From: Chitinophagales bacterium
GTDB lineage: Bacteria > Bacteroidota > Bacteroidia > Chitinophagales > UBA10324
DNA: 38,556 nt
Direction of reading: 5' to 3'
Assembly (NCBI GenBank): GCA_039919825.1
Contig: JBDSEW010000353.1
Span: forward strand, 1 to 38,556
Shown piece by piece: positions 16,621 through 38,556 of the stretch (position 1 is the first letter of the stretch; the number at the start of each line of letters is the position of its first letter). Position numbers and translations under genes: made by a program. Under the pieces are notes generated by a model. That model was given only the letters and a program-made list of their open reading frames with translations. It did not search any database and was not told the origin of the DNA.

Positions 16621-19209
16621 ATGATCAAACGATTTACTTCTCTGCCAACCTATCTCAACATTCGGCATTCATTATTTTCAACTTCTCAGTGCGCAAGGAT
16701 AATCGGGTTGGTTACAATCATTCTTTCTGCTGCTTCAATGGTGTTTGCTCAAACAGTTCCGGTTAAAGAATGGGACAAAAGTTTTGGTGGAACCAAGCAT
16801 GATGAGATGTATGTCATAATACAGACCAATGATGGGGGGTACCTGCTTGGCGGCGATTCAGATTCCCCTATAAGCGGGGAGAAATCTCAGGGCTCGCAAG
16901 GGTTTAGTGATTACTGGATCGTGAAAACAGATGCACTTGGCAATAAAATGTGGGACAAGCGATTTGGTGGTAACTCAAGGGAAGAAATGTTTTGTGTATT
17001 GCAAACATCTGATAGTGGATATCTGCTGGGTGGCTGGTCAATGTCTGATGTTAGTGGTGACAAAACCCAAACCAGCCGTGGAGAGAGTGATTACTGGATC
17101 GTGAAAACAGATTTGAATGGCAACAAACTTTGGGACAAGCGATATGGTGGAACTTCAGGTGATGAGTTGCGTGCTATGGCCCCAACAAGTGACGGAGGAT
17201 TCATTTTGGCCGGGGAATCGCTATCAGGTGCAGGCGGCGAAAAGACACAGGCTAATCATGGTGAATTTGATGTATGGGTGGTAAAGATAAATGCAGAAGG
17301 AATCAAGCAATGGGATGCTTCTTATGGAGGTATTCTGGACGATCGTTTGAATGCCATTCAGCAAACACCCGATGGAGGGTACATAATCGGTTCATGGACC
17401 CTTTCTCCCATTGGTTTTGACATTACACAACCAAGCAGAGGCTCAACGGATATGTGGCTCGTGAAGACAGATGCCAGCGGTGTTAAAAAGTGGGATGGCC
17501 GCTATGGTGGCGATAACAATGAATATTTGTATGCATTAGATCAAACAACTGATGGCGGATTTATTTTAGGCGGGTATACAAGATCTGATGTGAATGGTGA
17601 TGTCACCATACCTGGTAAGGGAGGGTTTGATTTTTGGATGGTGAAAACAAATAGTACTGGAATAAAACAATGGGATAAGCGCTATGGTGGAAATAATGAT
17701 GAAAAAGGAAAATCAATTTTTGAAACTACAGATGGAGGATTTATCATGGGAGGGTGGTCTGAATCGGGTATCAGTGGCGATAAAACGCAGGAAACTAAGG
17801 GTACCGTGGACTATTGGGTAGTTAAATCGGATGTAAATGGCAATAAGCTGTGGGACCTCGATTTTGGCGCGAGTAATGAAGAGCGCTTGCACGACATTCC
17901 GCAGACGAGCGATGGGGGATTTATAATCGGGGGACACTCTTATTCCACAAAGAATGGTGATAAATCGCAGACAACCTTTGGCATAGATGACTATTGGATT
18001 GTAAAGCTATCTGCTTCAGATCCAACAGAACTTTTTTACGCTGATACAGATAATGACGGATATGGAAATGCCGCAATTGATACATTGGCTGTGGCCGCAC
18101 CTCCCGGCTATGTAAGTGATAACACCGATTGTAACGATACTAATGCTGCAGTTAATCCTGCTGCTGCTGAAGTTTGTAATGCAAATGTAGATGACGACTG
18201 TGATGGACTGGCTGATGATGACGATATTAATGTCGCAGGACAGGGAAGTTTTTATACAGATAATGACAATGATTTGTTTGGATCAGGTGCAGCCATTCAC
18301 GCCTGCATTCAGCCTGTGGGAACAGCGGCAGAAAACAACGATTGCAATAACAACAATCCAGCAATAAATCCTGGGGCGTTTGATATGTGCAATGGTATTG
18401 ATGACAACTGCAATTTTACAACGGATGAAAATCCATTGGCGGTTCCAACCATCACGCCCCAGGGAACAATATCAGCCTGCAATGGTGTCGACGTTCTTTT
18501 GACCACAGATAGTCAACCTTCATTAAGCTATCAGTGGTTCAAGGGAAGCACACCTCAGCCTGGCGCAACCAACAATACTTTTATAACCAACAAGGCCGGA
18601 AAATTTAATGTAAAGATAAGCACCATTCCCAGCTGTGAAGCTTCTTCAGCCATCACTGTTATCCAAAGGTTCAGCAAACCTGAAGCGGAGATCACAGCGC
18701 TTGGTAATCTTAATATTTGTGAAACAGGATCTGTTGATCTGAAAGCAAACGGGGGTACCGGACTTCTGTACCAGTGGAAAAAAGGCAACAGCTTGCTCAT
18801 TGGTGCTACCAACTTAATTTATACAACCACCTCGATAGGTTCCTATAGGGTAATTGTTTCGAACGAAGCGGGTTGCAGTAATACTTCACCCAATGTTAAG
18901 GTAACTGCATCTTGCAAGGATGCACAATTGATCTCTGGTGGTTCTGATGGAGAGTTAGTGGTGTATCCCAATCCCGCAGGAAATCACTTGGTGGTGAATA
19001 TGAAATTTAAAGAAGGGGTGAATGCCGAAGCGATTATTGCAGTCGTTGATCTGCTAGGTCGCAGTGTTCAATTGTCTAAAGCACAGGTTTCAGATGGCTT
19101 TCTGCAGTGCGATCTTTATCTTGAAGGAACCATTGCCGATGGCAGTTACTTCGTAAAAGTATGGGTGAACAATCAACTTTTCGTGAAAAACATCCTTCTA
19201 CAGCAATAA
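16621..19209 (+). CDS. secreted multi-domain T9SS cargo protein: 7 x 60-aa propeller-like repeats, two MopE-like Cys/Asp-rich motifs, two Ig-like modules and a Por C-terminal sorting domain
   Basis: Signal peptide ..LSAASMVFAQ. There are seven WDK.(F/Y)GG...(D/E)......T.DGG(Y/F).(L/I)GG.S.S..SG(D/E)K(T/S)Q...G..DYW(I/V)VK.(D/N)..G repeats. DTDNDGYG...DCND.N..VNP.A.E.CN..DDDCDG occurs twice, and YQW.KG....GAT...Y twice. The C-terminus VVYPNPAGNHLVV....GSYFVKV is a T9SS CTD. Confidence 0.85.
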   Translation: MIKRFTSLPTYLNIRHSLFSTSQCARIIGLVTIILSAASMVFAQTVPVKEWDKSFGGTKHDEMYVIIQTNDGGYLLGGDSDSPISGEKSQGSQGFSDYWIVKTDALGNKMWDKRFGGNSREEMFCVLQTSDSGYLLGGWSMSDVSGDKTQTSRGESDYWIVKTDLNGNKLWDKRYGGTSGDELRAMAPTSDGGFILAGESLSGAGGEKTQANHGEFDVWVVKINAEGIKQWDASYGGILDDRLNAIQQTPDGGYIIGSWTLSPIGFDITQPSRGSTDMWLVKTDASGVKKWDGRYGGDNNEYLYALDQTTDGGFILGGYTRSDVNGDVTIPGKGGFDFWMVKTNSTGIKQWDKRYGGNNDEKGKSIFETTDGGFIMGGWSESGISGDKTQETKGTVDYWVVKSDVNGNKLWDLDFGASNEERLHDIPQTSDGGFIIGGHSYSTKNGDKSQTTFGIDDYWIVKLSASDPTELFYADTDNDGYGNAAIDTLAVAAPPGYVSDNTDCNDTNAAVNPAAAEVCNANVDDDCDGLADDDDINVAGQGSFYTDNDNDLFGSGAAIHACIQPVGTAAENNDCNNNNPAINPGAFDMCNGIDDNCNFTTDENPLAVPTITPQGTISACNGVDVLLTTDSQPSLSYQWFKGSTPQPGATNNTFITNKAGKFNVKISTIPSCEASSAITVIQRFSKPEAEITALGNLNICETGSVDLKANGGTGLLYQWKKGNSLLIGATNLIYTTTSIGSYRVIVSNEAGCSNTSPNVKVTASCKDAQLISGGSDGELVVYPNPAGNHLVVNMKFKEGVNAEAIIAVVDLLGRSVQLSKAQVSDGFLQCDLYLEGTIADGSYFVKVWVNNQLFVKNILLQQ
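16771..18030 (+). repeat. seven tandem 180-bp (60-codon) coding repeats
   Basis: WD-(K/A/G/L)-x-(F/Y)-G units start every 60 codons. The exact 27-nt string agtgattactggatcgtgaaaacagat occurs at 16906-16932 and again at 17086-17112, exactly 180 bp apart. Confidence 0.85.
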
Positions 19210-19943: not shown

Positions 19944-21146
19944 TCACGGTTTAAAAACCAGGGTTCTCGAAAATAAGAGCCCTTTGGTTTTACATTGAAT
20001 AACATAGCTGCCACTTGTGAATGTGCTGATGTTTATTGGCAGGCAATTTTTACCTCTTGGTAAAACCGGTGTTTTGATACGAATTAATTCTCTTCCATCA
20101 AGGTCATTCATATATATCTCCAATGATGAAGCAGTTGCCAATTCAAATGTAATCAAGAGATGATCTGTTGAAGGATTTGGATAGACAGAAAGAGATTGTG
20201 TAAAAATTTGCTGTTCTGTAAGGGCTGTTAAACCACCACCATCATCCGTATGATAAATTTTGCCGGTTTGTCCCGCTGCCCACCCTTGTACATTATCTGC
20301 AAAGTACACGTCGTAAAGATCATTGGTAAAAGAAATGGGCTGATTCACCCATGCTTCACCACCATCAACCGTACGAAGAATTTTTGCAGTACCAACGGCG
20401 GTGCCGATTTGGGATGTTGTAAAATGAATGGCAAACAAATCATTGGTGCTTCCGCTGTTTTGCGGCGACCAAACTTGTCCACCATCTGTTGTTTTTAATA
20501 TCGTTCCGTCATAACCGGCAACATAACCGATATCGGTATTAACAAATGAAACACTTCTTAGATCAGCATTGGAACCACTTGTTTGCAATAACCATTCTAT
20601 ACCTCCATTTGTGGATTTAAGAATAGTTCCGTCAAATCCAACTGCATAGGCGATCAAACTAGTAACCATTTCCACACTGCTTAATTCCACTAAAACTCCA
20701 CTCTCCTGCAGATTCCAATTGTTTCCGCTATTCGTTGTTGTAGTGATCACTCCATTTTGACCTGTCGCCATTCCATGTTGTGCATCAAAAAAATGAACAT
20801 GCACCAGGTGTTCGGTTGTAGTGCTGTTCTGGTTGAACCAATTTTCTCCACCATTTTCTGTTCTTAAAATCAATCCTGATTCTCCAACAATGGCACCGTG
20901 AAGCGAATCTGGAAAATACACATCACGCAAAAATAAACCGGTACCCGAGGATTCATTATTCCACGATTCACCCCCTGTAATAGTATGCTTAATGGTGCCT
21001 GTAGTACCAACAGTAAAACCATTCATCGTGCTGGTGAATGAAACACCCAACAATGTTTCAGTTGTTCCGCTTAGCTGGCTAGTCCATTGGGCTGATGCAT
21101 TTAAACCGGGCAACAGAATTAATAGGAGCACGGAAAAGTTTTTCAT
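19944..21146 (-). CDS. Ycf48/BNR-like beta-propeller protein with T9SS C-terminal sorting domain
   Basis: Signal peptide MKNFSVLLLILLPGLNASAQ. Repeated (T/S).(D/N)GG..W motifs are present (TGGESW, ENGGENW, TNGGIEW, TDGGQVW, VDGGEAW). The C-terminus is SVYPNPSTDHLLI....GSYVIQC. Confidence 0.8.
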   Translation of the reverse strand: MKNFSVLLLILLPGLNASAQWTSQLSGTTETLLGVSFTSTMNGFTVGTTGTIKHTITGGESWNNESSGTGLFLRDVYFPDSLHGAIVGESGLILRTENGGENWFNQNSTTTEHLVHVHFFDAQHGMATGQNGVITTTTNSGNNWNLQESGVLVELSSVEMVTSLIAYAVGFDGTILKSTNGGIEWLLQTSGSNADLRSVSFVNTDIGYVAGYDGTILKTTDGGQVWSPQNSGSTNDLFAIHFTTSQIGTAVGTAKILRTVDGGEAWVNQPISFTNDLYDVYFADNVQGWAAGQTGKIYHTDDGGGLTALTEQQIFTQSLSVYPNPSTDHLLITFELATASSLEIYMNDLDGRELIRIKTPVLPRGKNCLPINISTFTSGSYVIQCKTKGLLFSRTLVFKP

Positions 21147-21639
21147 AAGCGGTTGATTGATGAGCAGCATTTCTTTTAAGATATTTCCGAAAATCCAGAA
21201 TTTCGTAGTATTGATTTTAACAGGTCTTTAAAAGAGTGCTTAGCTGCAACTTATTCTTTTATTCAGTTGGAATGTTATTAAATAGACGAACGCAAGGAAT
21301 TATCGACCAACGATATGAAGGTGGATATGTAATTGCAAAAAAAGAAGGAGTCATGTAATTGCTTATTTAATCAGGTCGAATTTTTCAAGCAGCCATTCAC
21401 GATCGAATAATTCGTTGCTAGATTGCATTTCGTTTTTTAATTTGTTTCCTTCAGTCTTCGAAATGTTTTTCAGCGAAAACATTTTTTCACTGAACTTGAT
21501 AAAATGCTGATAGTTGGTACGATGATTTACCGATACACTGTATAAATCAAAAGTTAACTTTAAAGAATAAGTCTTTCAATACTCCTAAAGAAGGATTTTT
21601 ATAAATCTGGCCTGACAAACCTGGTTTCTGATCAGTTAT

Positions 21640-23400: not shown

Positions 23401-24060
23401 TCAAAAAGTGGATAAATCAATAGGATGGATAGAATTTATTTCTTCCCTCTCACTGAATAAAAAATGCTCATTTATTTTATAGTTAAATAAGATATCCTGA
23501 AAGAGTTCATAGTATACTTCTCTTTCCTTCGCGGGAATTTTTAGTGTTATATCGTAAATTATACCTTTTACTTCCGTATACATAGCCAAAGAAAGGAACA
23601 AAGAATCCCTAATATCTGTGGTAAACTCTCCATAGAAAGATTTCTTGTTTTCAAAAACCAATTCCCTGAGTGAATACTCCTTAAATATTTCATTGGTATC
23701 ATCTTTAAGCTGTATATACGCCTCTCTAAGATAATTGTCAAGTGTAATGTTGTTTAGCTCTTCATCATGCCTAAGAACCACAAAAAAAGTGTTGGTATCT
23801 GAATCATTAAGTTGAGTAAAAAACAAAAAATTATTTTGTTTTTCCGGTTCCCATAAAACAGGACAACAAATTCTATCATACTGAACTTCATAACAGTGCC
23901 AGTCCTTTGGATTAAGAGACTTCCCCTTTCTAATTTGGAGCTCATCTACTTTCAAATACTCCTTTTCAGTATTATTAATACTATTGGTATTAAAATTACA
24001 AGAAATCCATAAAGGGATTATTATCATAATGGGCAGCAATCTATAGCATTCTAATATCAT
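23401..24060 (-). CDS. hypothetical lipoprotein (219 aa); candidate orphan immunity protein
   Basis: The N-terminus ..LLPIMIIIPLWISC is a signal peptide with a lipobox-like I-S-C. The gene is A+T-rich and lies downstream of the Rhs toxin-immunity pair. I recognise no family motif. Confidence 0.55.
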   Translation of the reverse strand: MILECYRLLPIMIIIPLWISCNFNTNSINNTEKEYLKVDELQIRKGKSLNPKDWHCYEVQYDRICCPVLWEPEKQNNFLFFTQLNDSDTNTFFVVLRHDEELNNITLDNYLREAYIQLKDDTNEIFKEYSLRELVFENKKSFYGEFTTDIRDSLFLSLAMYTEVKGIIYDITLKIPAKEREVYYELFQDILFNYKINEHFLFSEREEINSIHPIDLSTF

Positions 24061-24907: not shown

Positions 24908-25327
24908 TTATTCGAGTGGTGGTAGATTAAAATATTTTAAGTACAATCTCAATTCCTTTGCTGATTTAAGTAACATTCTTTCCAATTCATCTTTGGGATG
25001 AAATTTAGCAAAGTATCTATTATTTGAACTCATTTCGCTTTTATCAGCCTTTGGCATAACAATAGCATTAAGTTGACTTAAATGCAGTGTCCTTGACTTA
25101 TCATCATAATCAGGCATTTCCCCATTTTGCAATTTAAAAACAATAATTTCTAAATGATCTTCTATGTTTTCATAAGAAATCGAAACTACTTTTCCTTCAC
25201 CCATGTATTCTACATCATAAAAAGCATTTCCATTAATAGTCTGTTTTATCTTCTTAAAATCATAGTTGGATTTAAGAAATGAAAAAAATGACTTTACAGT
25301 TTCAACATATTCTAACCCTTCTATCAT
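24908..25327 (-). CDS. candidate cognate immunity protein of the Rhs C-terminal toxin (139 aa, no signal peptide)
   Basis: Its ATG (25325-25327) overlaps the toxin TGA (25324-25326) as ATGA. It is small, acidic in places, A+T-rich, has no signal peptide or TM segment, and sits in the canonical immunity position. Confidence 0.7.
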   Translation of the reverse strand: MIEGLEYVETVKSFFSFLKSNYDFKKIKQTINGNAFYDVEYMGEGKVVSISYENIEDHLEIIVFKLQNGEMPDYDDKSRTLHLSQLNAIVMPKADKSEMSSNNRYFAKFHPKDELERMLLKSAKELRLYLKYFNLPPLE

Positions 25328-28300
25328 TGTTTTATAATTTGAAATGCATTCGGGTGAAGATTTAAATAGTTCTTAATCATATTTTGTTCCATTTGATAAA
25401 AAATACTTGGTGTTCCTCTTGTGGGATCCAGACCTATATCAATAATTGGTCGTCCGCTTCTCATTTGCCGTAAAATCCATTTACGATTATAAGCCATTAT
25501 CTTACCTGATATTTGTTGTTTTGTACCAATAAAAGTTGGCATATTTTCTAAAATTATTGAACCAGGATTTTGTATTGCTGCGACACTTACACGTTTCATT
25601 CCTTCTCCAATAATTGTTTGCCTCCCCTCTGTAATTGCAAGCTCTTTTGCTGTTGTGCTTATTCCTGCCTTTACTAAATTTCCTGTTCCAAATGTTGCTA
25701 CCGCGATCGCTACTTCCGTTATAATTCCATTCTCTTCAATCCGGTCTATTGAATTTTGTGGTCCCCACCTACTGCCAGGAACAACAATTTGTACTTCTGA
25801 GTTTTTAAGATGATCTTCTAATTCAGATATTCTTCCTCTTTCTCCGGGACTTATAATATCGAAAGTAGAAGTTACAGCACTAGTATTGAATTCTTTATCA
25901 TACTCGGTGAATCCATAATTAACCTTAAAAGTCTTATGTCCAATTTTTTCATAGTTGCCACCAAGTCGGTTTGCCTTTTCATGCGCTACTTTTCGTTCTT
26001 TAGAGTCAAGAAAGAACATGCCATTAGGATCGACTCCAATAATAGGATTATTCAATACGTAGCTATAAGCAGTCCATGATAAGTACGCCTCCGCCATCGG
26101 ATCCACCACCCACCACCTTCCCACCTGCGGGTCATACCACCTTGCTCCGTAATCCAGCCAGTTTAGATTCAAAGAACGATGCAACTCCTTACCATTATAA
26201 AGATAGTTGTTTGTATCTGAATTTTCCTGTTGCCAGCTGATGTCGGCAATCAGGTTTCCATAAGGGTAATAGTGGTTGAACTGTATAACGGGATTGATCT
26301 GTGTACCAAGTTTAAGAAAAAGGGTATCGAACCAAATGTCCTGCTCGCTTTCATTATGCAAAGAAACCCGAAGGATATATTGCTGTGTGCTGTCGGAAAC
26401 GTGAATACCAATGGAGTCAGTGATACGGCTCCAGTTATTGGCGGTATCTACATCTATGCGCCATTGATTGATTTCCTGATTAGCAGTATCACGCAATGAA
26501 AGTTCCAGGTAAGCGTCCGGTGAGCCGCTGGTAGAATCTGTCCGTAATGCATTGCCAGAATTATTTTTCTTTCGTGAGAACAATTCAAATAACCCAACAA
26601 TGTTCAACTGTAAACCAAAGGGTGGTTTATTTATGTAGTTGGCATCATCTGCAGGAATAGCTTTGTGCGGCAATGTTTGCATTTCAAAACTGAAAGAAGG
26701 TCGGAAAGGTGTATGTCCGTGGTCTTTTGGAGGTGCTTCCTTCTGAGGATTATTTTCTGAATAATAATAGTACACGGATACTTCCAGTGTATCTCCGGAT
26801 TTTACAGGTATCTCCGTATACGGACCCTCTGTATTAAATAATTTTCCGGAGGAATTGCCCTGCAACGCCACTTCATTGTTGCGGACTGTGCTTACGTTTT
26901 TGAATTTCGGAAATTTGTTTCCTTCCTCATCGGCATTTAGCTCAAAGGTCAGGTTGCTTTTTGTCCAGTTCAGCCCCTGGCCTTTAAATACTACTCTTAT
27001 GTTTCCTAAATGATCCTTGATGTAATAATAGGGCATCCAGAAATCAAGCGTATCCTTCAGCAGGTATCCGTCAGTAAAAAGAATTTTTTGTGGCTTACCC
27101 TCTTCGTGGATGATGTCGCCGAAGTAACCAGTAATATTCGTTTGCAAATTCTCCGTTGTTTCTTCTTGGAGCTTCGCACCATTTGCATTATAGGTTATCT
27201 TTAACTGGTCTGATGATTTCGCAATCAATGAAGGAAGATTCAAATGGTTATAGGAGATTGCAATAGCCTTATTGCCATCATTCACCAGATTTCCGTTCAC
27301 ATCATATCCATAATCGTTTTCACCAGGAGTATCCTTAAAATCAGGACTTTTGTCCCAAGTTACCAATGAACCGGCATCAGAGACCGCCTTCAATTGATTT
27401 CCTTTGTAACTGTAATTTAATTGATCACTTATTCCATAAGTGTACAATTGTGTTTGCTGATTGTAAGATATCGCACCATGTACATTCATTGTTTTTATGT
27501 TGCCATTATCGTCATACGATAAATTGTCAACGGTATATTGATCTGCTTCTGTAATTACCACACCTATTGCTGTACCATATCTTGCTTTCGTCAGTCGATT
27601 AAGCGGATCATAACTGTAACCATACACACGGGTATCAGGATCATGGTTGCTTTTCCATGCCATCCAGGAAATGTTGCCTGCAAATTGTGCAGCTGCGTCA
27701 AGCAATGGGTAACCGTCTGTATAGTGCAATTCCATTCCCCAGTAATCACCATTGTCTTTTACATTTTCAAGATTATTAATTGAAGTGACCCATCCACGGA
27801 TATTGTATTTATAATCCAGTGTCTGCATTGATTTTTGGATAGGCACTGTACCTGTTCCTATTGACTGGTTGTGCAACTTCTGTTTCAACAATTGACCCAG
27901 TTCATTGTAGGTTAAACTGGTTGTCCAGATTTCCGGCTGACCATCAACCTCCAGAAATGTATTTTTTACTCTACCTGCATGATCATACTCATTCCTGGTT
28001 TTTCTGGTGAGTTCTGTGCTGATGCCAAGGCCACCGCCCACGGGAGCAACGGTGTAATGGTGAATGCGCTCCTGCTGCAACAGCTCTCCTGAAAAACTGT
28101 ATGCAAACGTTTCACTCTCTGCTTCGTCTTCATAATTGTTACCCATTGTTTCAATCACCCTTCCTTTGTAGTCGTAGAAGGAAACACTCTTTTCAAATAC
28201 TGCTGGCATTGAATTCAATACTTTACTGAACTGGCCGGTAAGTTTGTTTCGTGATCGTGCTGTTTGAGAATTATTGGAAGTATAATCTGAAGTTCCGTTA

Positions 28301-31300
28301 TTATTGAAATCATAATCATCATAGTAATTCAGGCTGAGCTCATCAAGAGCGGTTTTTGGATATGCAAAATTGGTATATCCATTCGAAGTATTACTTCTTG
28401 TTTCATTGCAAATAGCGGATGATAACCAGCGTTCATCCTGCAATTGCGAGGGTGTTTTACCAGTGATTGTAGTAAGTCCCGAAGAAATACTTCTTTTCAA
28501 CCCATCATATTTCTGATAAGACCATTTATTGGACTTCCTCAGATTTGGATCCTGAGTAAGTATCACACGATTTAATTGATCATATATATAATAGCTCCAG
28601 TCAATACCAGGTAATTTTTTAGCAGAGATCAGCCCCCGCTTATTGTATTGATAGAAGAAATTCCACAAGTCATTTGAAGAAGAAACTGTGTAATTATTCA
28701 GGGAAGCCAGTTTACTATACCCTTCAGGAGTTATCACCTGTACCAATCTTTCAAGGTCATCATACACATAATAGGTGTAGTTAAAATTGAATTGTTTTTG
28801 ACCGGGTCCTGTAATCTCACTCTTCGGATTTTTCTCCAGTATTGTTTTTCCTTTTTTATCCTGATAAGTGATGGAGATGTTGTCATTTTCATCGGTTGTT
28901 TCTTTAACTGATAATGTTCCTGCGGGATAAAAAGAAGCACCAGACGAGTTGGATGAAGTTGTGCTGAATACAAACAGGTGAACTTCATTAATGTAGTTAG
29001 AGCGATAGTTATACTGAATATTATGACTACCCAGCTTCCATTCTTCACCAGGGTTAGCTTCTTTTGTAACACGGTTTAAGGGAGAGTTCTCGTATTCTGT
29101 TTCGGTGAATGGATAGCCGGTATGTGCTATTTCCGCGGCGGAAGAATAAAAATTTAGCTGATCATCAAAAGCACTACTCTTGAACTGACCAGGCAATAGA
29201 GAAGAGGTATAAGGCAAATAATTGCGGGGCTGCCTTCCTGAAGCATCATAGGTTATGTAAGTGACTATATCCTTGCCCGATGGACTTTGACCACAATCCA
29301 GCATTTGAATGGGTCTTCCAAGACCGTCCAGGAAATTTATTGAGCGACGACTTTGTGTATTTGGCAATGTTGCAGCGGTAAGAGCAGCTTTAGCAACACC
29401 CGATGCTGAAGCAATTTCTGTCCGTATATAGTTGTGATCTGCAAGGTTGTTTTCATCATGGTAGTGGTAATCTGTGAAGCTTAATCCATTGCCGAAATGA
29501 TCTTCAGCATATTGAAAGCGGTTTAGGTTATTATATTCAAAGTGATTCATGTAACCGTTTTCATCACCAATTTCAGTAAGGCCAATCAGTGGGAGATAGG
29601 AGTACGTTGTTCCTGTTGCTGACTCAGGGTAGAACTGCAATTCATCCAATTTTCCCGTTCCTGATAAGGTAAAAGAACCACTGCTGTTGAAATTTAAATG
29701 ATATTGATAAAAAGTAAATCCGGAAATGGTTTCTCCGGAAACTGTTGAGACCATTGTAAATCCAGTTCCTGAAATAGTTGTTGCTGTTGTTGACCAAAAG
29801 CTTAGAACATATGTTCCCGGAACGGGAACATAATGAGAAACAAAACCCAGGTTAAAGTAGCGACTGCCAGAAATGGTTTTTGAAACAGGTCCTGTTATGC
29901 TTTCACTTGCGACATTTGTTTGCGGATAACTAAACTGACCTTCGTAATCATTTTCAAATCCTGTATATGCAACATCTGAAAAGTTAGCGTTTTTAAAGAT
30001 TGCACCAATTAATCCTGATGGATTTTCATAAATCACTGAAGTGACGCTGCCAAATGGTTCGTGAAACTGTAAGGGTTGCGCACGATCATTGTAGAGGTCA
30101 AATTTCTGAATGCATCTGTACCGGGTATCACGTAAAAAGATATTGTTGCTTACCATTGAAACTTTGAAAGTTGATTTGACCAGGGGTTCCTTCAAATCAA
30201 GTTGAAAAATTGTATCCTGTACTACCTTAGTACCTGACATTTTAAACTTAGTGAGTGATCCCTCTACAAGTAAGGTATCAATTACAGCATTCAGTTTGGC
30301 AGAGCTCTGATTAACTCCACCGGAACTACCATTGGTGTATTTTATCCCGCCATCTAAAATGCCTCCATTAACTTCCGCAACATTATTGAGCGTATTTGCC
30401 TTTAGCAGGCTTTTTTTCCTGAGTATGTATTTGTACTCTTCAACTATGGCATTGTGAATGTGTTTTTTATTGACCATTGAGTCTATGGCAATCAGCATGG
30501 GGTTAGAACCTAAGTAGTTGAACACTCCATAATCAGAAGGATATCGCATGATATGCATTTCTTCTATTCCATTGGAGCGGGTGATTTGTTCACGTGTAAC
30601 CTGGATGTGTTCCGGATTATCATAGAAATATTTTTTAACAGTGGCTAATTGTGAGCCATCCTGAAAATGCTCTGTGGTAACCTGTTCATTTTGGTGAACC
30701 CATTGGGTTGGATAGAAATAAAAGGTAAATTTAAATTCATCTGCTCCTATTCCCTGAAACATTTGATCATTTATAGAATAAGCTACTTTTAAACCTGTGA
30801 TGGAATGAAAGTGATTTTCTGGTTCAAATTCGTATTTGTTTGATGTTTCAATTTGAAGCTGGTTATCTGAATTGTAGGTTTTTTCATTAATTAACAATCC
30901 TCTTTTGTATTCATTATTAATAGGCGGGGCAAACGGATATTTAACGACTCCAATATTTGGAGCAAAAGAAAAAACACTCAACTTCCGGCCAAAAGATCCA
31001 CTCCCATTCGATAAAAGTTTCCCCAATATTTCAGTTACTTCAGGATAAAAAACAGGATTTCCATTGGAAGAATAAATGGGTAGTTGGGAATTTGAGGTTC
31101 TGGCGTAGAGATTACACAATGTGCCCGGACCACTAATTTCACTAAAGCCCCTTGTAGTGTAAGCGTAATCATAAACAATTGTACTTAGTAGAAAACCGCT
31201 TGATCGCTCTGGTTCAGCAGCCATGTGATAGGAATAGTGCACCACCTGATCATCCAGAGTATCAACATTATTTTTTCTCAGCCGCACCTCCTCTATGCGA

Positions 31301-33099
31301 ACACCTCCTGCAAGTATTGATTTTATGGTATCGTCCTGGCGTTCATAATAATAGGCTGTAATTGTTGCATGCGCTGCCGTTCCGGAGCCAATCATTTCAG
31401 CAGATAGATAGTATGTTCCTGGTGTTAAGAACAAACAATTCTCATAATTATCCGTGGTTCCTCTTTCAAACAGTACCCCACCACTGCTGTTGGTGAGCAT
31501 AACAGAGGCTTCACACTCACAAGGCGGGTTACCGAATCCAATAGATGTGGCAATCTTTATTGTTTGATCGGCATTTACAAAGAATGTATCTGCTGGCTTT
31601 GTGCTGTTTACACCATTTGATGAAGCAAATGCGCTCATTGCAATGCGAGGGATTTCATTTGCGTCGAAAGTATCAATTCCAAATTCATCCATGTATCTTC
31701 CAAACCGGTTTCCTTCATAAGTAAACAAGGCATATCCTCCGGTTGGATATTGAATGCTTTTTAGAATAGCTGCTTTTGAAAAATTGAAGTCAGGCAGCCT
31801 GTTTGCTCCATAAGCAGCACCGTTGAATAATTTACATTCTTCCCCTGGATAAGCAGGCACGAGTGTTTGGTTTGAGAGGGCACCATTGTAATATCCCCAG
31901 TGGTCCTGTGCCTTTGAATTTCTTGGAGGCAAAGGTGTGGGATCATATTCAAAATTATATGCAGGAAGAGCCGTACCATCTTTTCCCTTCTCAATCAGTT
32001 CTTTTAACATCAATCTTTTACACTCCCGGTCATTACAGAAATTTGGCTCGGTTGGATGGTAGTCATATTGTAATGAAAAGGATTTGATAACTTCATTCTG
32101 AAGATTCACAATTTCTATACGGGATAAAGCATAGTCATATTCTGCATCCTCTCTTTCTGTTTCTGCGTAAAATTTAATTGCACCTTCAGAAAAGTTAATG
32201 GCTTGAAGCCTTTTGAGGGCAATTTCTATTTCGGTTGAACATTCAGTATCATGATCAGTACAATAAAGCCAGGGATCCTCTAATCTTGTTTCGCTTGTGG
32301 TGGCATAATATAATATGGAGCCATCAGCGTAATCAAAGGTTACAATAGTGCCCTTTGCACTGGTGATGGATTCTAAATACCAGGCTGACTTAATATTCTC
32401 ATCAATCTGTTCATCGCCTCCTCCCTCACAAACTGTGGTAGCTCTTGTTAATTCAATGTTATTGAAAAGATAGGAAGTGCCATCAGCCGTAATAATCTTA
32501 AACGAGGTTAATTGTTGTGATGCAACGATATTAATGTTTTGATATGGAATTGTTCGAAAGATTAACAGTCCCTGGGGATCAATCCCTTCAGTTATAAATT
32601 TTCCGGAATATCCTGCGAAGTTGAAAAAGAACTCATCCGGTTGCACATCAAGAATATGATCAGCGATATCCTGCAAATATTCATGCCGGTCCTCTTCAGT
32701 GTAGGATAAAAATTCCGAAATGCTTCCGACATTATTAATAAAGCCGGCAATTGGTTTTTCATCCGGAAGCCCCATCACTGTTCTTGTTATTACTCCTCCT
32801 GCATTTAGTGACCATCCCAATCCAACCCACGAAGCAATTTCTCCAACCTTAACTCCACTGGCATGATAAGAAACTGAAATTGGAAGTGTTAAATCATGGT
32901 CAGTAACTTGATACAGGGGAATGTCAATAGTCGCAATACCTGCACTGAGGTTAACAGGAGTAAGACCATATTTTGCAAGCGCTGCTGCAGTTGGTGCCGG
33001 AGGAATAATGGAGACATTTAAAGGATCAACCGGCTGCGAATAAAGAGCGGTATGTATTGCAAATAATAGAAGCGGAAATATTTTCCAATAGCTTTTCAT
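25324..33099 (-). CDS. giant Rhs/YD-repeat polymorphic toxin precursor (2591 aa) with a Sec signal peptide
   Basis: Signal peptide MKSYWKIFPLLLFAIHTALYS. An SpvB-like segment is present: LTLPISVSYHASGVKVGEIASWVGLGWSLNAGGVITRTVMGLPDE. INFLDGLGRPIQ marks the shell entry. There are many YD repeats (YDASGRQ, YDHAGRV, YNELGQL, YDPLNRL, YDDNGNI, YDVNGNL). The Rhs-associated core reads DHLGNIR...YYPYGN...NNYLYNGKE...YGARWYDPQVGRWWVVDP...NNPIIGVDPNGM. Confidence 0.95.
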   Translation of the reverse strand: MKSYWKIFPLLLFAIHTALYSQPVDPLNVSIIPPAPTAAALAKYGLTPVNLSAGIATIDIPLYQVTDHDLTLPISVSYHASGVKVGEIASWVGLGWSLNAGGVITRTVMGLPDEKPIAGFINNVGSISEFLSYTEEDRHEYLQDIADHILDVQPDEFFFNFAGYSGKFITEGIDPQGLLIFRTIPYQNINIVASQQLTSFKIITADGTSYLFNNIELTRATTVCEGGGDEQIDENIKSAWYLESITSAKGTIVTFDYADGSILYYATTSETRLEDPWLYCTDHDTECSTEIEIALKRLQAINFSEGAIKFYAETEREDAEYDYALSRIEIVNLQNEVIKSFSLQYDYHPTEPNFCNDRECKRLMLKELIEKGKDGTALPAYNFEYDPTPLPPRNSKAQDHWGYYNGALSNQTLVPAYPGEECKLFNGAAYGANRLPDFNFSKAAILKSIQYPTGGYALFTYEGNRFGRYMDEFGIDTFDANEIPRIAMSAFASSNGVNSTKPADTFFVNADQTIKIATSIGFGNPPCECEASVMLTNSSGGVLFERGTTDNYENCLFLTPGTYYLSAEMIGSGTAAHATITAYYYERQDDTIKSILAGGVRIEEVRLRKNNVDTLDDQVVHYSYHMAAEPERSSGFLLSTIVYDYAYTTRGFSEISGPGTLCNLYARTSNSQLPIYSSNGNPVFYPEVTEILGKLLSNGSGSFGRKLSVFSFAPNIGVVKYPFAPPINNEYKRGLLINEKTYNSDNQLQIETSNKYEFEPENHFHSITGLKVAYSINDQMFQGIGADEFKFTFYFYPTQWVHQNEQVTTEHFQDGSQLATVKKYFYDNPEHIQVTREQITRSNGIEEMHIMRYPSDYGVFNYLGSNPMLIAIDSMVNKKHIHNAIVEEYKYILRKKSLLKANTLNNVAEVNGGILDGGIKYTNGSSGGVNQSSAKLNAVIDTLLVEGSLTKFKMSGTKVVQDTIFQLDLKEPLVKSTFKVSMVSNNIFLRDTRYRCIQKFDLYNDRAQPLQFHEPFGSVTSVIYENPSGLIGAIFKNANFSDVAYTGFENDYEGQFSYPQTNVASESITGPVSKTISGSRYFNLGFVSHYVPVPGTYVLSFWSTTATTISGTGFTMVSTVSGETISGFTFYQYHLNFNSSGSFTLSGTGKLDELQFYPESATGTTYSYLPLIGLTEIGDENGYMNHFEYNNLNRFQYAEDHFGNGLSFTDYHYHDENNLADHNYIRTEIASASGVAKAALTAATLPNTQSRRSINFLDGLGRPIQMLDCGQSPSGKDIVTYITYDASGRQPRNYLPYTSSLLPGQFKSSAFDDQLNFYSSAAEIAHTGYPFTETEYENSPLNRVTKEANPGEEWKLGSHNIQYNYRSNYINEVHLFVFSTTSSNSSGASFYPAGTLSVKETTDENDNISITYQDKKGKTILEKNPKSEITGPGQKQFNFNYTYYVYDDLERLVQVITPEGYSKLASLNNYTVSSSNDLWNFFYQYNKRGLISAKKLPGIDWSYYIYDQLNRVILTQDPNLRKSNKWSYQKYDGLKRSISSGLTTITGKTPSQLQDERWLSSAICNETRSNTSNGYTNFAYPKTALDELSLNYYDDYDFNNNGTSDYTSNNSQTARSRNKLTGQFSKVLNSMPAVFEKSVSFYDYKGRVIETMGNNYEDEAESETFAYSFSGELLQQERIHHYTVAPVGGGLGISTELTRKTRNEYDHAGRVKNTFLEVDGQPEIWTTSLTYNELGQLLKQKLHNQSIGTGTVPIQKSMQTLDYKYNIRGWVTSINNLENVKDNGDYWGMELHYTDGYPLLDAAAQFAGNISWMAWKSNHDPDTRVYGYSYDPLNRLTKARYGTAIGVVITEADQYTVDNLSYDDNGNIKTMNVHGAISYNQQTQLYTYGISDQLNYSYKGNQLKAVSDAGSLVTWDKSPDFKDTPGENDYGYDVNGNLVNDGNKAIAISYNHLNLPSLIAKSSDQLKITYNANGAKLQEETTENLQTNITGYFGDIIHEEGKPQKILFTDGYLLKDTLDFWMPYYYIKDHLGNIRVVFKGQGLNWTKSNLTFELNADEEGNKFPKFKNVSTVRNNEVALQGNSSGKLFNTEGPYTEIPVKSGDTLEVSVYYYYSENNPQKEAPPKDHGHTPFRPSFSFEMQTLPHKAIPADDANYINKPPFGLQLNIVGLFELFSRKKNNSGNALRTDSTSGSPDAYLELSLRDTANQEINQWRIDVDTANNWSRITDSIGIHVSDSTQQYILRVSLHNESEQDIWFDTLFLKLGTQINPVIQFNHYYPYGNLIADISWQQENSDTNNYLYNGKELHRSLNLNWLDYGARWYDPQVGRWWVVDPMAEAYLSWTAYSYVLNNPIIGVDPNGMFFLDSKERKVAHEKANRLGGNYEKIGHKTFKVNYGFTEYDKEFNTSAVTSTFDIISPGERGRISELEDHLKNSEVQIVVPGSRWGPQNSIDRIEENGIITEVAIAVATFGTGNLVKAGISTTAKELAITEGRQTIIGEGMKRVSVAAIQNPGSIILENMPTFIGTKQQISGKIMAYNRKWILRQMRSGRPIIDIGLDPTRGTPSIFYQMEQNMIKNYLNLHPNAFQIIKQ
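25327..26016 (-). other. C-terminal toxin payload domain of the Rhs protein (230 aa after VDPNGM), family unassigned
   Basis: It starts FFLDSKERKVAHEKANRLGG and ends ..IIDIGLDPTRGTPSIFYQMEQNMIKNYLNLHPNAFQIIKQ. It has no Cys and only 4 His. There is no HNH, HxxD, HExxH, GHH or deaminase motif. Confidence 0.7.
26278..26976 (-). other. approximately 230-aa insertion inside the Rhs-associated core (aa about 2042-2274), beta-sandwich / CBM-like by pattern
   Basis: It lies between DHLGNIRVVFKG and NHYYPYGN. It contains GDTLEVSVYYYYS ... AYLELSLRD...W..I......V....QYILRVSLHNESEQDIWFDTLFLK, a pattern like galactose-binding-like jelly rolls. Confidence 0.5.
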
Positions 33100-34781: not shown

Positions 34782-36338
34782 TCAATGCAGGAATATGAGT
34801 TTCTTCGTTTGTAACTCGTTACCTTTTTTAAACGTGTAATAATATGTGTTGGAGGAGGATTTCAAATTAACCGGTTCCAGTGTAAATGTGTGCCATCCTT
34901 TCTTCAGAAAGCCATTGTCAACCAACTTCTTTACTTCTTTTCCCATAAGGTCATATAAGGTAAGCGAATAATTTCCGGGTATGGTAATGTTTACATCAAT
35001 CTTTGTTTCATCGCTAAAAGGATTAGGATAATTCTGATACAGCATGAAATGACTGGATTCGAATGCAGGTGTTTCTTCAATCAGTGTTGCTACATCCACC
35101 TGGGCAGTCCATAACGATGTCGCGAAGCCGTCCTGTCTTGTCCATATAGGTGCAATTTTTCCGTCGTAAACACTGATGTTGGAGTAGTCGCCAAAGAATA
35201 CGTCGGTGGTGAGCACAAATGGCTCACTGCTGATTTTTTGGTTGGTAAATGTAACACCTCCATCTGTTGAATAGGCCAGGTAAACGTCTGTACTCTGATC
35301 GCTGTAGTCGCGGCGATCATAAAAAAGTACGTAGATGTATCCGGTAGTTTGATCCACATCCATCCAGGTGAGGAATTGATGTTTGGCATATTCATCATCA
35401 TTCACTTTTAGGGGAATGCTCCACGTTGTTCCTTCGTCCGTTGATTTCGACAGCCATACATCGGTATTGTCGGTGCCATTGCGCTGATCGGTCCAGTTGA
35501 CATAGATGGTTCCATGATAAGCACCATTGCTCAAATCGGATTTTGTAACCGGCAATCCATTGCAGCGGATCATTCCGGGAATATAATAATCCCAGCCACC
35601 CGGCTGATCCGAAACCACGATGTCATCATCCAGCCATGTTTCACCACCGTCCAATGACCTGTCGAAGAACAAAGTATCACGGTTCGACCAGCATACATAT
35701 ACTTCACCATTTACGCCAATGGCAGGCACTGCTCCTTCTGTAGTATTATCACCATCAATACAATCGCCGGCTAATCTATTGATACGAACAGGTGTGCTCC
35801 AGGTTGCGGCATCGTCAGTTGACTTTGAAAAAAGAATGACAGAGCTGTCATTTGGATCGGAGCTTCCATATTGATCAAACTGTGTCCAGGTTACATACAT
35901 ACTATTGGTGTTCTGGTCTACAGTAGTCCAGGCTTTATCCTGGGCGTGCGTTCCGTTTAGCCCGGTATAGGTTCCTGCAGACCATGATGTGCCATTATCT
36001 GCGGAACGCTGGCAAACGATGCGGTCGATCCAGTTGCCGGATGCAGGATTGGAAAGGTGGATGTAGTAAAAATTTCCTGCAGTGTCGGTAAAGATGCAGG
36101 GATCGCCCCATACGCCATAAGGAGATTCTAATTGATCTTTTTCCCAGGTAAGGCCCCCATCAAGCGATTGATAAACATAATTGATATTGGCTCCTGCAAC
36201 AATGTTGTTTGTGTTTTTAGGATTGATGCAGATGCTGGGTTCTTCAGGGTTACCGGTATCATCGATCTTGATATTTAAAAACTGGCCAAATGAATATTCA
36301 TGGCTTAAAAGAAAAACAAACAACAGGAATTTTATCAT
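34782..36338 (-). CDS. BNR/Asp-box repeat beta-propeller (sialidase-like glycoside hydrolase fold) with T9SS C-terminal sorting domain
   Basis: Six Asp-boxes: SLDGGLTW, SADNGTSW, STDDAATW, SLDGGETW, STDEGTTW, STDGGVTF. The C-terminus is LYQNYPNPFSDETKI....GNYSLTLYDLMGKEV. No FRIP motif is seen. Confidence 0.8.
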   Translation of the reverse strand: MIKFLLFVFLLSHEYSFGQFLNIKIDDTGNPEEPSICINPKNTNNIVAGANINYVYQSLDGGLTWEKDQLESPYGVWGDPCIFTDTAGNFYYIHLSNPASGNWIDRIVCQRSADNGTSWSAGTYTGLNGTHAQDKAWTTVDQNTNSMYVTWTQFDQYGSSDPNDSSVILFSKSTDDAATWSTPVRINRLAGDCIDGDNTTEGAVPAIGVNGEVYVCWSNRDTLFFDRSLDGGETWLDDDIVVSDQPGGWDYYIPGMIRCNGLPVTKSDLSNGAYHGTIYVNWTDQRNGTDNTDVWLSKSTDEGTTWSIPLKVNDDEYAKHQFLTWMDVDQTTGYIYVLFYDRRDYSDQSTDVYLAYSTDGGVTFTNQKISSEPFVLTTDVFFGDYSNISVYDGKIAPIWTRQDGFATSLWTAQVDVATLIEETPAFESSHFMLYQNYPNPFSDETKIDVNITIPGNYSLTLYDLMGKEVKKLVDNGFLKKGWHTFTLEPVNLKSSSNTYYYTFKKGNELQTKKLIFLH

Positions 36339-37410: not shown

Positions 37411-38556
37411 TTAACGCTCAATCACCAATTTACTGGTCACCACTTCTTTATTGGTAGCGAGTTGCAGCAGGTATAAACCTGAAGGTACATCGCTGCTGTT
37501 GAATGTTACCTGATGACTTCCTTCCGGATACATTGCATTACTTATTTCATCTATCACTTTTCCATTGAGATCAATCAGCCTGATAGTTATCGGTGATGCA
37601 TCGTATAAAGAGAATGAAATGGTGGTGTTATCTGAGGCAGGATTGGGGAAAATTCCTGCTTCGAGGGGTGCATTTACCTGCTCATTTAACAATCTAAGTG
37701 GAGGAGTTGTGAAATCGGGACCCATGGTAAAAGGTGATGCGATGAGTGGCTGGTTGGCACATATACTTTGAACGGCCCATTTATAGGTGGTGTTCGGAAG
37801 CAGGTTGCCGAGTTTTTTTGAATTTCCTGAGGATGATTTTTTAATTCCAGCAGGGTTACCGTCCTGATGATAAAAAATCTTATAGCCTATGGCGCCAGGT
37901 GCAACATTCCACTGTACTTTAGCCGAAGTGCTTGTAAGATTGGAAACGAAAAGTTCGATAGGTTGCGGGCAGTCATTTACTGCTAACTTGCTCAGCACGA
38001 CGTCATCCACATAGAATTCAGCATCCTGAGCATTAAAGGCATATGCAAAAATGTTCATCCCTCCCCACATCTTTTGTGCACCGGTTCCGGTAGCGCCGAG
38101 CGACCATTGCCAGTTGTAAACAGAGGCTGAATTAATGTAAAGCACAGCAAGATCATTGTTGAGATCCACACTCACTTTGATATCGTTCCACGTGCCGGGA
38201 TTGTAGCTAATAGGGATTGTTGCACCGCCCGCCAGTGCATTTCCACCACCTGCATTATCAAAATATACCTCCAGCATCCATGCGATGCCGGGCACCGCGC
38301 TTTGCTGAAGGTTGAAGTAAGCTCCCTTGCCGATTACTATGTACATCTTCATCTTCAATTCATAAACTCCGGAAGTGTAGTCGGATGGAAATGGGAGAAC
38401 AAGATCCGTGGGCCCCGTATTACCGACAATGTAAACGGAATTGGATTCGCTATATGCCTGCGCATCGCTTACCAGTGCATCTTCGGATGCAGTGCCACCG
38501 GACCACGTAGTCCAGAGTGCAGAATTAGCTGCAAGCAGTGAACCGGCAGTATAACT
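37411..38556 (-). CDS. secreted LamG/jelly-roll-like + fibronectin-III protein with T9SS C-terminal sorting domain (partial; 5' end outside the window)
   Basis: The frame stays open from 38358 to the window edge (..SYTAGSLLAANSALWTTWSGGTASEDALVSD..). An FN3-like segment is present (P..L.VSNLTSTSAKVQWN.APGAIGYKIFY). The C-terminus is GIFPNPASDNTTISF...GLYLLQL...KLVIER. Confidence 0.8.
   Translation of the reverse strand, partial: SYTAGSLLAANSALWTTWSGGTASEDALVSDAQAYSESNSVYIVGNTGPTDLVLPFPSDYTSGVYELKMKMYIVIGKGAYFNLQQSAVPGIAWMLEVYFDNAGGGNALAGGATIPISYNPGTWNDIKVSVDLNNDLAVLYINSASVYNWQWSLGATGTGAQKMWGGMNIFAYAFNAQDAEFYVDDVVLSKLAVNDCPQPIELFVSNLTSTSAKVQWNVAPGAIGYKIFYHQDGNPAGIKKSSSGNSKKLGNLLPNTTYKWAVQSICANQPLIASPFTMGPDFTTPPLRLLNEQVNAPLEAGIFPNPASDNTTISFSLYDASPITIRLIDLNGKVIDEISNAMYPEGSHQVTFNSSDVPSGLYLLQLATNKEVVTSKLVIER

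Follow-up and report, generated by a model that had tools for sequence, protein, structure and literature searches.

The locus analyzed here raises a simple question: what is carried by the last 230 amino acids (aa) of the large Rhs protein encoded in the window, i.e., the whole 38,556-bp contig JBDSEW010000353.1 of a Chitinophagales metagenome-assembled genome (MAG; GCA_039919825.1)? These residues follow the motif VDPNGM, and are numbered below from the first residue after it; a first-pass annotation, made from the sequence alone, had been unable to assign this tail to any nameable toxin family. The system is of a known kind, an Rhs polymorphic toxin followed by its cognate immunity gene, with a payload family and an immunity family that are both unclassified, and the two very probably constitute a new Rhs-delivered toxin-immunity family. 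The reading of the tail as a toxin was strengthened by two elements absent from the first-pass annotation, namely the cognate immunity gene and the breadth of the family.

The payload domain and its immunity partner

The tail corresponds to the last 230 codons of the rhs gene and begins at aa 2362 of the precursor, directly after ...NNPIIGVDPNGM (coordinates of all features are given in Table 1). The preceding Rhs-associated core terminates in ...YDPQVGRWWVVDP...VDPNGM, the expected C-terminal self-cleavage site, such self-cleavage being established for Rhs/TcC proteins. Since the TIGR03696 model of this core ends exactly at VDPNGM, the tail occupies the polymorphic payload slot of an Rhs toxin.

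Within the tail, the conserved unit was found to be much shorter than 230 aa. The first homologue search covered 5.8 billion proteins; homologues (73 matches, E-values down to 4e-46) aligned only to residues ~100/134 to 230, and upstream of residue 90 only 4 of the 73 could be aligned. In the AlphaFold2 (AF2) model of the whole tail, the predicted local distance difference test (pLDDT) values exceeded 94 over residues 131-230, whereas residues 1-130 mostly scored below 50. Because the structural comparison of this model was suspected to be blurred by the disordered N-terminal 130 residues, the core (residues 126-230) was re-predicted alone, based on an alignment of 72 diverse relatives, with a mean pLDDT of 93.5 and a predicted template modelling score of 0.83. 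The proximal ~95 aa had been proposed to form a separate pre-toxin or linker module; this portion is indeed variable, predicted with low confidence and outside the toxin domain, but the conserved unit starts at residue ~126-134 and not at 96.

The elements predicted for the core were a strand (residues 134-136), a helix (140-149), a short strand (~153), a long helix (166-187), a strand (191-193), a helix (205-220) and a last strand (227-229), so that the core is, as modelled, a minimal four-strand Rossmann-like domain of beta-alpha-beta-alpha-beta-alpha-beta layout. Both the alternation of strands and helices and the Rossmann-like alpha/beta fold suggested earlier for the distal half of the tail were recovered in the AF2 prediction as a small domain (helices and strands at pLDDT >94), and the motifs on which that suggestion relied were located at residues 134-139 (TIIGEG), 153-158 (SIILEN), 190-195 (PIIDIG) and 206-210 (FYQME).

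Conservation of the core was very high. Across the 72 diverse cores, G137, R142, G195, D197, S204 and E210 were invariant, and E138, M140, V143, N177, W180, G188, D193, R200, F206 and Y207 were conserved in at least 90% of the sequences. The most distant subgroups (27-37% identity) kept G137, E138, M140, R142, W180, D193, G195, S204, Y207 and E210; D197 and R200 can be lost in them, D197 being absent from two loci (L071 and L073). The acidic position of FYQME, singled out in the first-pass annotation as conserved-looking, turned out to be occupied by Glu210 in all aligned relatives (73/73 and 72/72), and the GEG loop retained its G-E pair throughout the family, with G, T, N or S at the third position. 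On the predicted elements, G137-E138 follow strand 1, R142 opens helix 1 and D193 ends strand 3, while G195, D197 and R200 are placed in the loop after strand 3, and S204, Y207 and E210 cap or open helix 3.

No known family could be recognized for this domain. Hidden Markov model libraries (Pfam-A, NCBIfam, PHROGs and PADLOC) were scanned with the tail and with the immunity protein, and gave no family at E ≤ 1 for the 230-aa tail; PDB sequences searched by phmmer and with three profiles gave nothing below E = 0.4. Foldseek searches of PDB (to April 2026) and BFVD with two AF2 models, those of the full tail and of the core, gave no matches at E ≤ 0.001, the core model alone yielding 1265 matches, none of them at this level. 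In the sequence and structure databases searched, no characterised toxin domain was matched either by profile or by structure, and the first-pass statement that no nameable toxin family fits was not contradicted. In addition, no known toxin-domain family was found on the core when 70 relatives (67 family members and 3 distant toxin open reading frames, ORFs) were compared with Pfam-A, the 67 members including a single Ntox10 match whose position relative to the core was not mapped. Searches of the literature on DUF6443-containing Rhs proteins and on Toprim or Rossmann polymorphic toxins yielded no description of the core domain. The composition of the tail agreed with what had been noted before: it has no Cys and four His (residues 12, 27, 69 and 221), and no HNH/xHH, HExxH, HxxD, HxE...PCxxC or convincing (D/E)xK motif.

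Two further readings of the conserved motifs were considered and rejected. A Walker-A/P-loop reading of IIGEGMKR was ruled out since, of the two basic residues, R142 alone is conserved and K141 varies. An ADP-ribosyltransferase (ART)-type R-S-E/QxE reading (R...S204...Q208-x-E210) was ruled out as S204, at the start of a predicted helix, and E210, inside that helix, lie 6 residues apart.

The stop codon of rhs is overlapped by the ATG of the next gene (CAATGA, an ATGA overlap), whose product has the same sequence as the NCBI entry under locus tag ABIO46_12410. Homologous genes of 134-139 aa were found downstream of the toxin in loci from four phyla (31-60% identity). In a genome scan (one genome per GTDB species, queried with 13 closer sequences), a same-strand homologue was located -3 to +83 nt downstream of the toxin in 51 of the 55 close-subfamily loci, the four loci without one being three truncated toxin remnants and one contig end. 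The immunity family comprised 731 proteins; the best 120 entries examined were nameless or annotated as 'hypothetical protein', had no precomputed Pfam domain and showed in no case a signal-peptide-like or transmembrane-like hydrophobic segment. Immunity proteins were acidic (median isoelectric point, pI, 5.9) and toxin cores basic (median pI 9.6, and 10.3 in the window). The identities of toxin and immunity protein co-varied between loci (rho 0.44), and in 97% of 1035 locus pairs it was the toxin that was better conserved (62% vs. 40% identity). In the distant toxin subgroups, a 115-165-aa ORF was always next downstream; that of the Gemmatimonadota group was a remote homologue of the immunity family (hhalign, 93.9%), and those of the other distant subgroups had no detectable relation to it. 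Known immunity families (Imm, SMI1/SUKH and CdiI families) gave only sub-threshold noise in Pfam and NCBIfam, PHROGs and PADLOC likewise yielded no family for the immunity protein, and a PDB profile search with the immunity protein gave only noise as well (E ≥ 0.4).

Distribution, scaffolds and orphan cassettes

The toxin family was widely distributed. An exhaustive profile search of 1.84 billion cluster representatives recovered 116 clusters at 50% identity with E ≤ 1e-30, and 178 with E ≤ 1e-10. A core-only profile matched 246 proteins in a word-indexed database, and the best 120 of these all lacked informative names as well as any Pfam domain on the core. At the genome level, 77 loci were found in more than 10 phyla, the groups represented including Bacteroidota, Verrucomicrobiota, Acidobacteriota, Pseudomonadota, Bacillota, Gemmatimonadota, Gracilibacteria (Candidate Phyla Radiation, CPR), Mollicutes, Elusimicrobia, Kiritimatiellae and Myxococcota, among others.

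The position of the domain was highly consistent: of the 162 members in which it is near-complete, 156 have its end at most 10 residues from the C-terminus. When 67 longer members were scanned with Pfam, Rhs/YD scaffolds were seen almost exclusively: RHS_repeat was present in 20 of them, RHS, DUF6531 and TEN_YD-shell in a few each, the DUF6443 scaffold was also represented, and two members had TcB/TcC-like scaffolds combining SpvB, TcdB_midN, FG-GAP and RHS. Recurrence on LXG, CdiA/Fil_haemagg, PAAR or MafB scaffolds, which had been envisaged in the first-pass annotation, was not observed among either the 67 longer members or the distant Firmicutes/Mollicutes members. The sole non-Rhs 'scaffold' of its kind was seen in a 255-aa protein from a JGI metagenome (P0051), in which a response-regulator receiver domain (PF00072) is fused upstream of the toxin core; the fusion probably stems from insertion of a cassette into an unrelated gene, or from mis-assembly of the two.

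Members outside long Rhs genes were also detected. In a Methylacidiphilales MAG (JANWVL010000025.1; locus L005, 1000-2695), an Ntox28 toxin and a CdiI_3 immunity gene are followed by a toxin of this family and a 134-aa immunity gene, the gene junctions overlapping or lying a few bases apart; the family toxin is a 147-aa stand-alone member with its own hydrophobic N-terminus, and the locus is a classic orphan cassette array. A distant member was found on a Leptospira noguchii plasmid, inside an array of cassettes made of Rhs C-termini and small ORFs, where one cassette is annotated as 'polymorphic toxin type 10' and the family member only as 'RHS repeat-associated core domain-containing protein'. 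Many database entries (P0324-P0360) were ORFs of 86-94 aa starting at Met140, without strand 1 and Glu138, and several genomic copies were truncated or frameshifted (L050, L058, L059, L034 and L057); these short and truncated copies look like decaying remnants of orphan toxins, often with an intact immunity gene.

The Candidatus Gracilibacteria copy (L039) was 52% identical to the core of the window, as translated without the alternative genetic code of that lineage, and its immunity gene lies 6 nt downstream of the toxin. Members were also harboured by MAGs of wall-less Mollicutes (L074-L076 and L082, Acholeplasmataceae/Anaeroplasmataceae), which argues against a cell-wall target. In the window itself, the guanine-plus-cytosine (GC) content was 33.0% for the toxin core, 28.6% for the immunity gene and 30.8% for the next ORF, compared with 40.6% for the window and 39.7% for the rest of rhs, which indicates a horizontally acquired cassette.

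Candidate active site and possible activities

On balance, the data lean towards an explanation that combines a linker, an enzymatic Rossmann-like toxin core directed at a phosphate-bearing substrate, and a downstream immunity protein. Self-cleavage at VDPNGM would release the tail, of which residues 1-125 would serve as a variable linker, with a hydrophobic Gly/Ala-rich stretch that may aid passage across the target membrane, and residues 126-230 (105 aa) would be the actual toxin. In the producer, the acidic 139-aa protein, presumably cytoplasmic, would neutralise the toxin, its synthesis being possibly coupled to that of the precursor by translation through the ATGA overlap.

That the toxin is an enzyme acting in the cytoplasm of the target cell is considered probable. 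A cytoplasmic enzyme with a phosphate-bearing substrate is suggested by the acidic set E138/D193/D197/E210 accompanied by arginines, by two helix N-termini at the putative site, by the basic surface of the core, by the acidic cytoplasmic inhibitor and by the presence of members in wall-less Mollicutes. The conserved polar residues all appear to lie at the C-terminal edge of the parallel sheet, the place where Rossmann-like enzymes bind their substrates, and G137-E138, R142, D193, G195/D197/R200 and S204/Y207/E210 would form the active site. The likeliest version, put forward tentatively, would be a divalent-metal-dependent nuclease using the acidic cluster E138/D193/(D197)/E210.

Several points weigh against this explanation. 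A basic pI is weak evidence for nucleic-acid binding, and a four-acid metal site would not be universal, since D197 is lost in two distant subgroups. The clustering of the conserved residues in three dimensions is read from the predicted topology only. The top Foldseek matches were to generic P-loop, Rossmann and Toprim folds (E ≥ 0.04, template modelling score, TM-score, ≤ 0.51), no structural or profile relative backs any specific chemistry, and a remote link to a known superfamily may have been missed by a comparison at the scale of PDB and BFVD.

A more far-reaching proposal, rather doubtful at present, makes the core the founder of a new superfamily of enzymatic toxins, with E/R/D/S/Y/E as its active site, no relation to any characterised toxin, and a chemistry or target not yet seen among interbacterial toxins. 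If so, the high conservation of the core would reflect the recognition of a universally conserved cytoplasmic macromolecule.

We favour a nuclease over an enzyme consuming nucleotides or cofactors, which we regard as unlikely and which had been raised as a speculation in the first-pass annotation. Such a toxin would starve the target by hydrolysing NAD(P)+, ATP, a nucleotide sugar or a related metabolite, or by transferring a part of it, and would hold the nucleotide via two helix N-termini (G137-E138-x-M and S204). It would be in line with the Rossmann-like fold, the Gly-containing loop between strand 1 and helix 1, the Ser capping helix 3, the cytoplasmic nature of the immunity protein, and the nucleotide-binding folds among the weak top Foldseek matches (Ras, EngB, S-adenosylmethionine methyltransferase and F1-ATPase). 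However, all structural matches were non-significant, including those to KRas and other P-loop NTPases (E 0.04-0.2, TM-score ~0.37) and those to the SonM methyltransferase, the phosphotransferase system protein EIIA and a hydrogenase NAD/FAD-binding domain (TM-score 0.51). Moreover, Walker A, GxGxxG, TIR, TNT/ART, NDT and Nudix signatures were all absent, Pfam gave no match, and a strongly basic surface is more typical of binders of nucleic acids than of small molecules.

Less probable still is that the core represents a very divergent branch of a known nuclease superfamily with a small Rossmann-like fold (Toprim, PIN or NYN). In its length (~100 aa) and its four-strand beta-alpha layout the core resembles the Toprim nucleases (RecR, OLD/GajA, RNase M5 and DnaG), and E138 after strand 1, near-invariant and kept in the distant subgroups, and D193 at the end of strand 3 occupy the positions of the Toprim Glu and first Asp. 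The Toprim domain of RecR (3vdp_D) was also the most probable Foldseek match (probability 0.80, TM-score 0.44), and FEN1 and RNase J appeared in the tail of the list obtained with the full-tail model. Yet the match to 3vdp_D had an E-value of 0.056, above the 0.001 that no match reached, and unlike Toprim domains the core has DIGxD (D193-I-G195-x-D197) in place of DxD, with a second Asp that is not universal. Comparison by hhalign with RecR, the only Toprim profile compared, gave a probability of 0.9% with 5 columns aligned, and neither the Pfam Toprim model nor the PIN model matched at E ≤ 1. With neither profile support nor a DxD motif, Toprim was kept only as a functional analogy. PIN-domain (VapC-type) RNase toxins resemble the core as proposed here: they are small and Rossmann-like, carry a number of conserved acids along the C-terminal edge of a parallel sheet, act in the cytoplasm and have a small neutralising partner; PIN domains have five strands and ~130 aa. 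The core of the window showed no sequence, profile or structural match to them in Pfam or Foldseek.

The region preceding the core bears on another, very improbable explanation, in which depolarisation of the target membrane, of the kind caused by Tse5-type Rhs toxins, would follow from insertion of the Gly/Ala-rich stretch, either by itself or together with the core. The linker varies widely in length, with 36 to more than 300 aa separating the DPxG motif from the core elsewhere in the family, and in the window it ends in the hydrophobic segment GIITEVAIAVATFGTGNLVKAGIS. Among 92 relatives, hydrophobicity was higher in the 60 aa before the core than in the 60 aa that precede these (median of the maximal 19-aa hydropathy, 1.08 vs. 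0.38, p = 3e-9), so that a hydrophobic segment before the core is a feature of many members. In Firmicutes and Mollicutes members, the glycine-zipper-like stretches before the core were far stronger than that of the window; the Firmicutes-type loci L066, L073 and L078 have long glycine-zipper/transmembrane-like repeats (e.g., ...GIALCFVPGMQGLGASLIGSGALGIAGGYISEALGG...) 100-120 aa upstream of the core; located between the Rhs core and the toxin, these repeats may serve as a module for translocation across the membrane. Nevertheless, transmembrane grade is rarely reached (6.5% of members attain 1.6, and the segment of the window falls below this grade), the conserved unit is the soluble polar core and not the hydrophobic stretch, the immunity proteins are soluble, with no transmembrane segment in 120/120, unlike those of pore formers, and the invariant residues E, R, D, S, Y and E argue for a catalytic role. 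A PT-TG pre-toxin identity for the hydrophobic ...TFGTGN... stretch was also rejected, as PF14449 matched neither the tail of the window nor six distant members with stronger hydrophobic regions.

Finally, it is most improbable that the conserved C-terminal domain, rather than being a toxin, serves a structural or regulatory purpose or functions in secretion, with a chaperone or adaptor encoded downstream: the higher conservation of the toxin relative to its partner is unusual for fast-evolving toxin pairs, but the domain fills the polymorphic slot directly after the Rhs core, is swapped among unrelated Rhs scaffolds, occurs in orphan or truncated cassettes beside known toxin-immunity pairs, and carries a foreign GC signature.

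The precursor, its neighbourhood and its place among known systems

The 2591-aa precursor matched DUF6443 and RHS_repeat in Pfam. Its N-terminal segment, MKSYWKIFPLLLFAIHTALYSQ, is a putative Sec-type signal peptide, as judged from the translation and its hydropathy. The ~1200 residues between this segment and DUF6443 (aa 22-1240) had no Pfam or NCBIfam match, with the sole exception of a weak HYR match that overlaps DUF6443, and represent a large uncharacterised N-terminal module of Bacteroidota Rhs proteins.

Table 1. Coordinates of the features of the Rhs locus and of neighbouring genes in the 38,556-bp window.
Feature	Positions	Strand	Basis or remarks
Toxin core domain, tail residues 126-230 (protein aa 2487-2591)	25327..25641	-	Homologue alignment, conserved columns, AF2
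Cognate immunity gene, 139 aa, pI 5.7, no signal peptide	24908..25327	-	Overlap, synteny, homologous family
rhs gene, 2591-aa Rhs/YD-repeat polymorphic toxin precursor	25324..33099 (stop codon included)	-	ORF list and translation
C-terminal tail, 230 codons	25327..26016	-	
Variable pre-toxin linker, tail residues 1-125	25642..26016	-	AF2 pLDDT mostly <50, few homologues align, no family match
Hydrophobic Gly/Ala-rich segment adjoining the core, tail residues 97-120	25657..25728	-	Maximum 19-aa hydropathy 1.46
Rhs-associated core, aa 2277-2361	26017..26271	-	TIGR03696, E = 1.5e-15, model positions 1-76 of 76
DUF6443 domain, aa 1241-1366, preceding the YD-repeat shell	29002..29379	-	Pfam PF20041, E = 1.7e-39
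N-terminal region without annotation, aa 22-1240	29380..33036	-	
Signal-peptide-like segment, N-terminal	33037..33099	-	Translation; 10-aa hydropathy maximum 2.30
219-aa ORF	23401..24060	-	GC 30.8%
Por_Secre_tail protein	16621..19209	+	
Por_Secre_tail protein	19944..21170	-	
Por_Secre_tail protein	34782..36338	-	
Por_Secre_tail protein	37411..38358	-	

No type VI secretion system, PAAR or VgrG genes were found within the window. The contig is rich in cargo of the type IX secretion system (T9SS), as four of its proteins carry Por_Secre_tail, the C-terminal sorting domain of this system, together with MopE-like, BNR/YCF48-like and fn3 domains; the Rhs protein itself has a putative N-terminal signal peptide only. 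The 219-aa ORF located ~850 bp downstream of the immunity gene has a lipoprotein-like N-terminus (...IPLWISCNFN...) and matched nothing in Pfam, NCBIfam or PADLOC. It may be part of the same acquired island, but does not duplicate the toxin or the immunity gene, of which no second copies were found in the window.

With the Rhs/YD-repeat toxins described so far (e.g., RhsA, Tse5, TseI and TcC of ABC toxins), the system shares a YD-repeat shell, an Rhs-associated core ending in DPxG before the payload, a variable C-terminal domain that moves between scaffolds, a small immunity gene directly after it, and the occurrence of orphan cassettes. It differs from them in a payload that belongs to no described toxin family, and in a scaffold that combines DUF6443 with a putative Sec-type signal peptide and an N-terminal region of 1240 aa without annotation.

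A comparable set of orphan toxin domains, PT1-PT9, with PIM immunity genes was reported by Nachmias et al. (bioRxiv 10.1101/2021.10.19.465003), with solved structures for PT1 and PT7. Like the core of the window, these are short, unannotated domains at the C-termini of polymorphic toxins, in which acidic and basic residues are conserved and which are accompanied by an immunity gene in synteny. The motif strings of the present family did not occur in the one supplementary file of that paper that was searched. No toxin structure was among the best 50 of the 1265 Foldseek matches, and none of the 1265 reached E ≤ 0.001. The present family may coincide with one of PT2-PT6, PT8 and PT9.

The degree of surprise should be tempered, since new unannotated Rhs C-termini are common. 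As an orphan C-terminus, however, this one is above average in the breadth of its family, its very high conservation, its confident compact fold without relatives and its candidate catalytic residues, of which E138, R142, D193, S204, Y207 and E210 would be the candidates for mutagenesis. Much new enzymology has come from Rhs and other polymorphic toxins, for instance the synthesis of (p)ppApp, the breakdown of NAD(P)+ and the ADP-ribosylation of rRNA, tRNA and EF-Tu. If the activity of the core were that of an ordinary DNase or RNase, the gain would lie mainly in annotation. The pair is widespread, including gut Bacteroidales, Akkermansiaceae, CPR and Mollicutes MAGs, and its toxin core comprises only 105 residues; defining the family would allow members that are at present nameless, 'hypothetical protein' or 'RHS repeat-associated' to be named, and would add both a toxin and an immunity family to effector catalogues.

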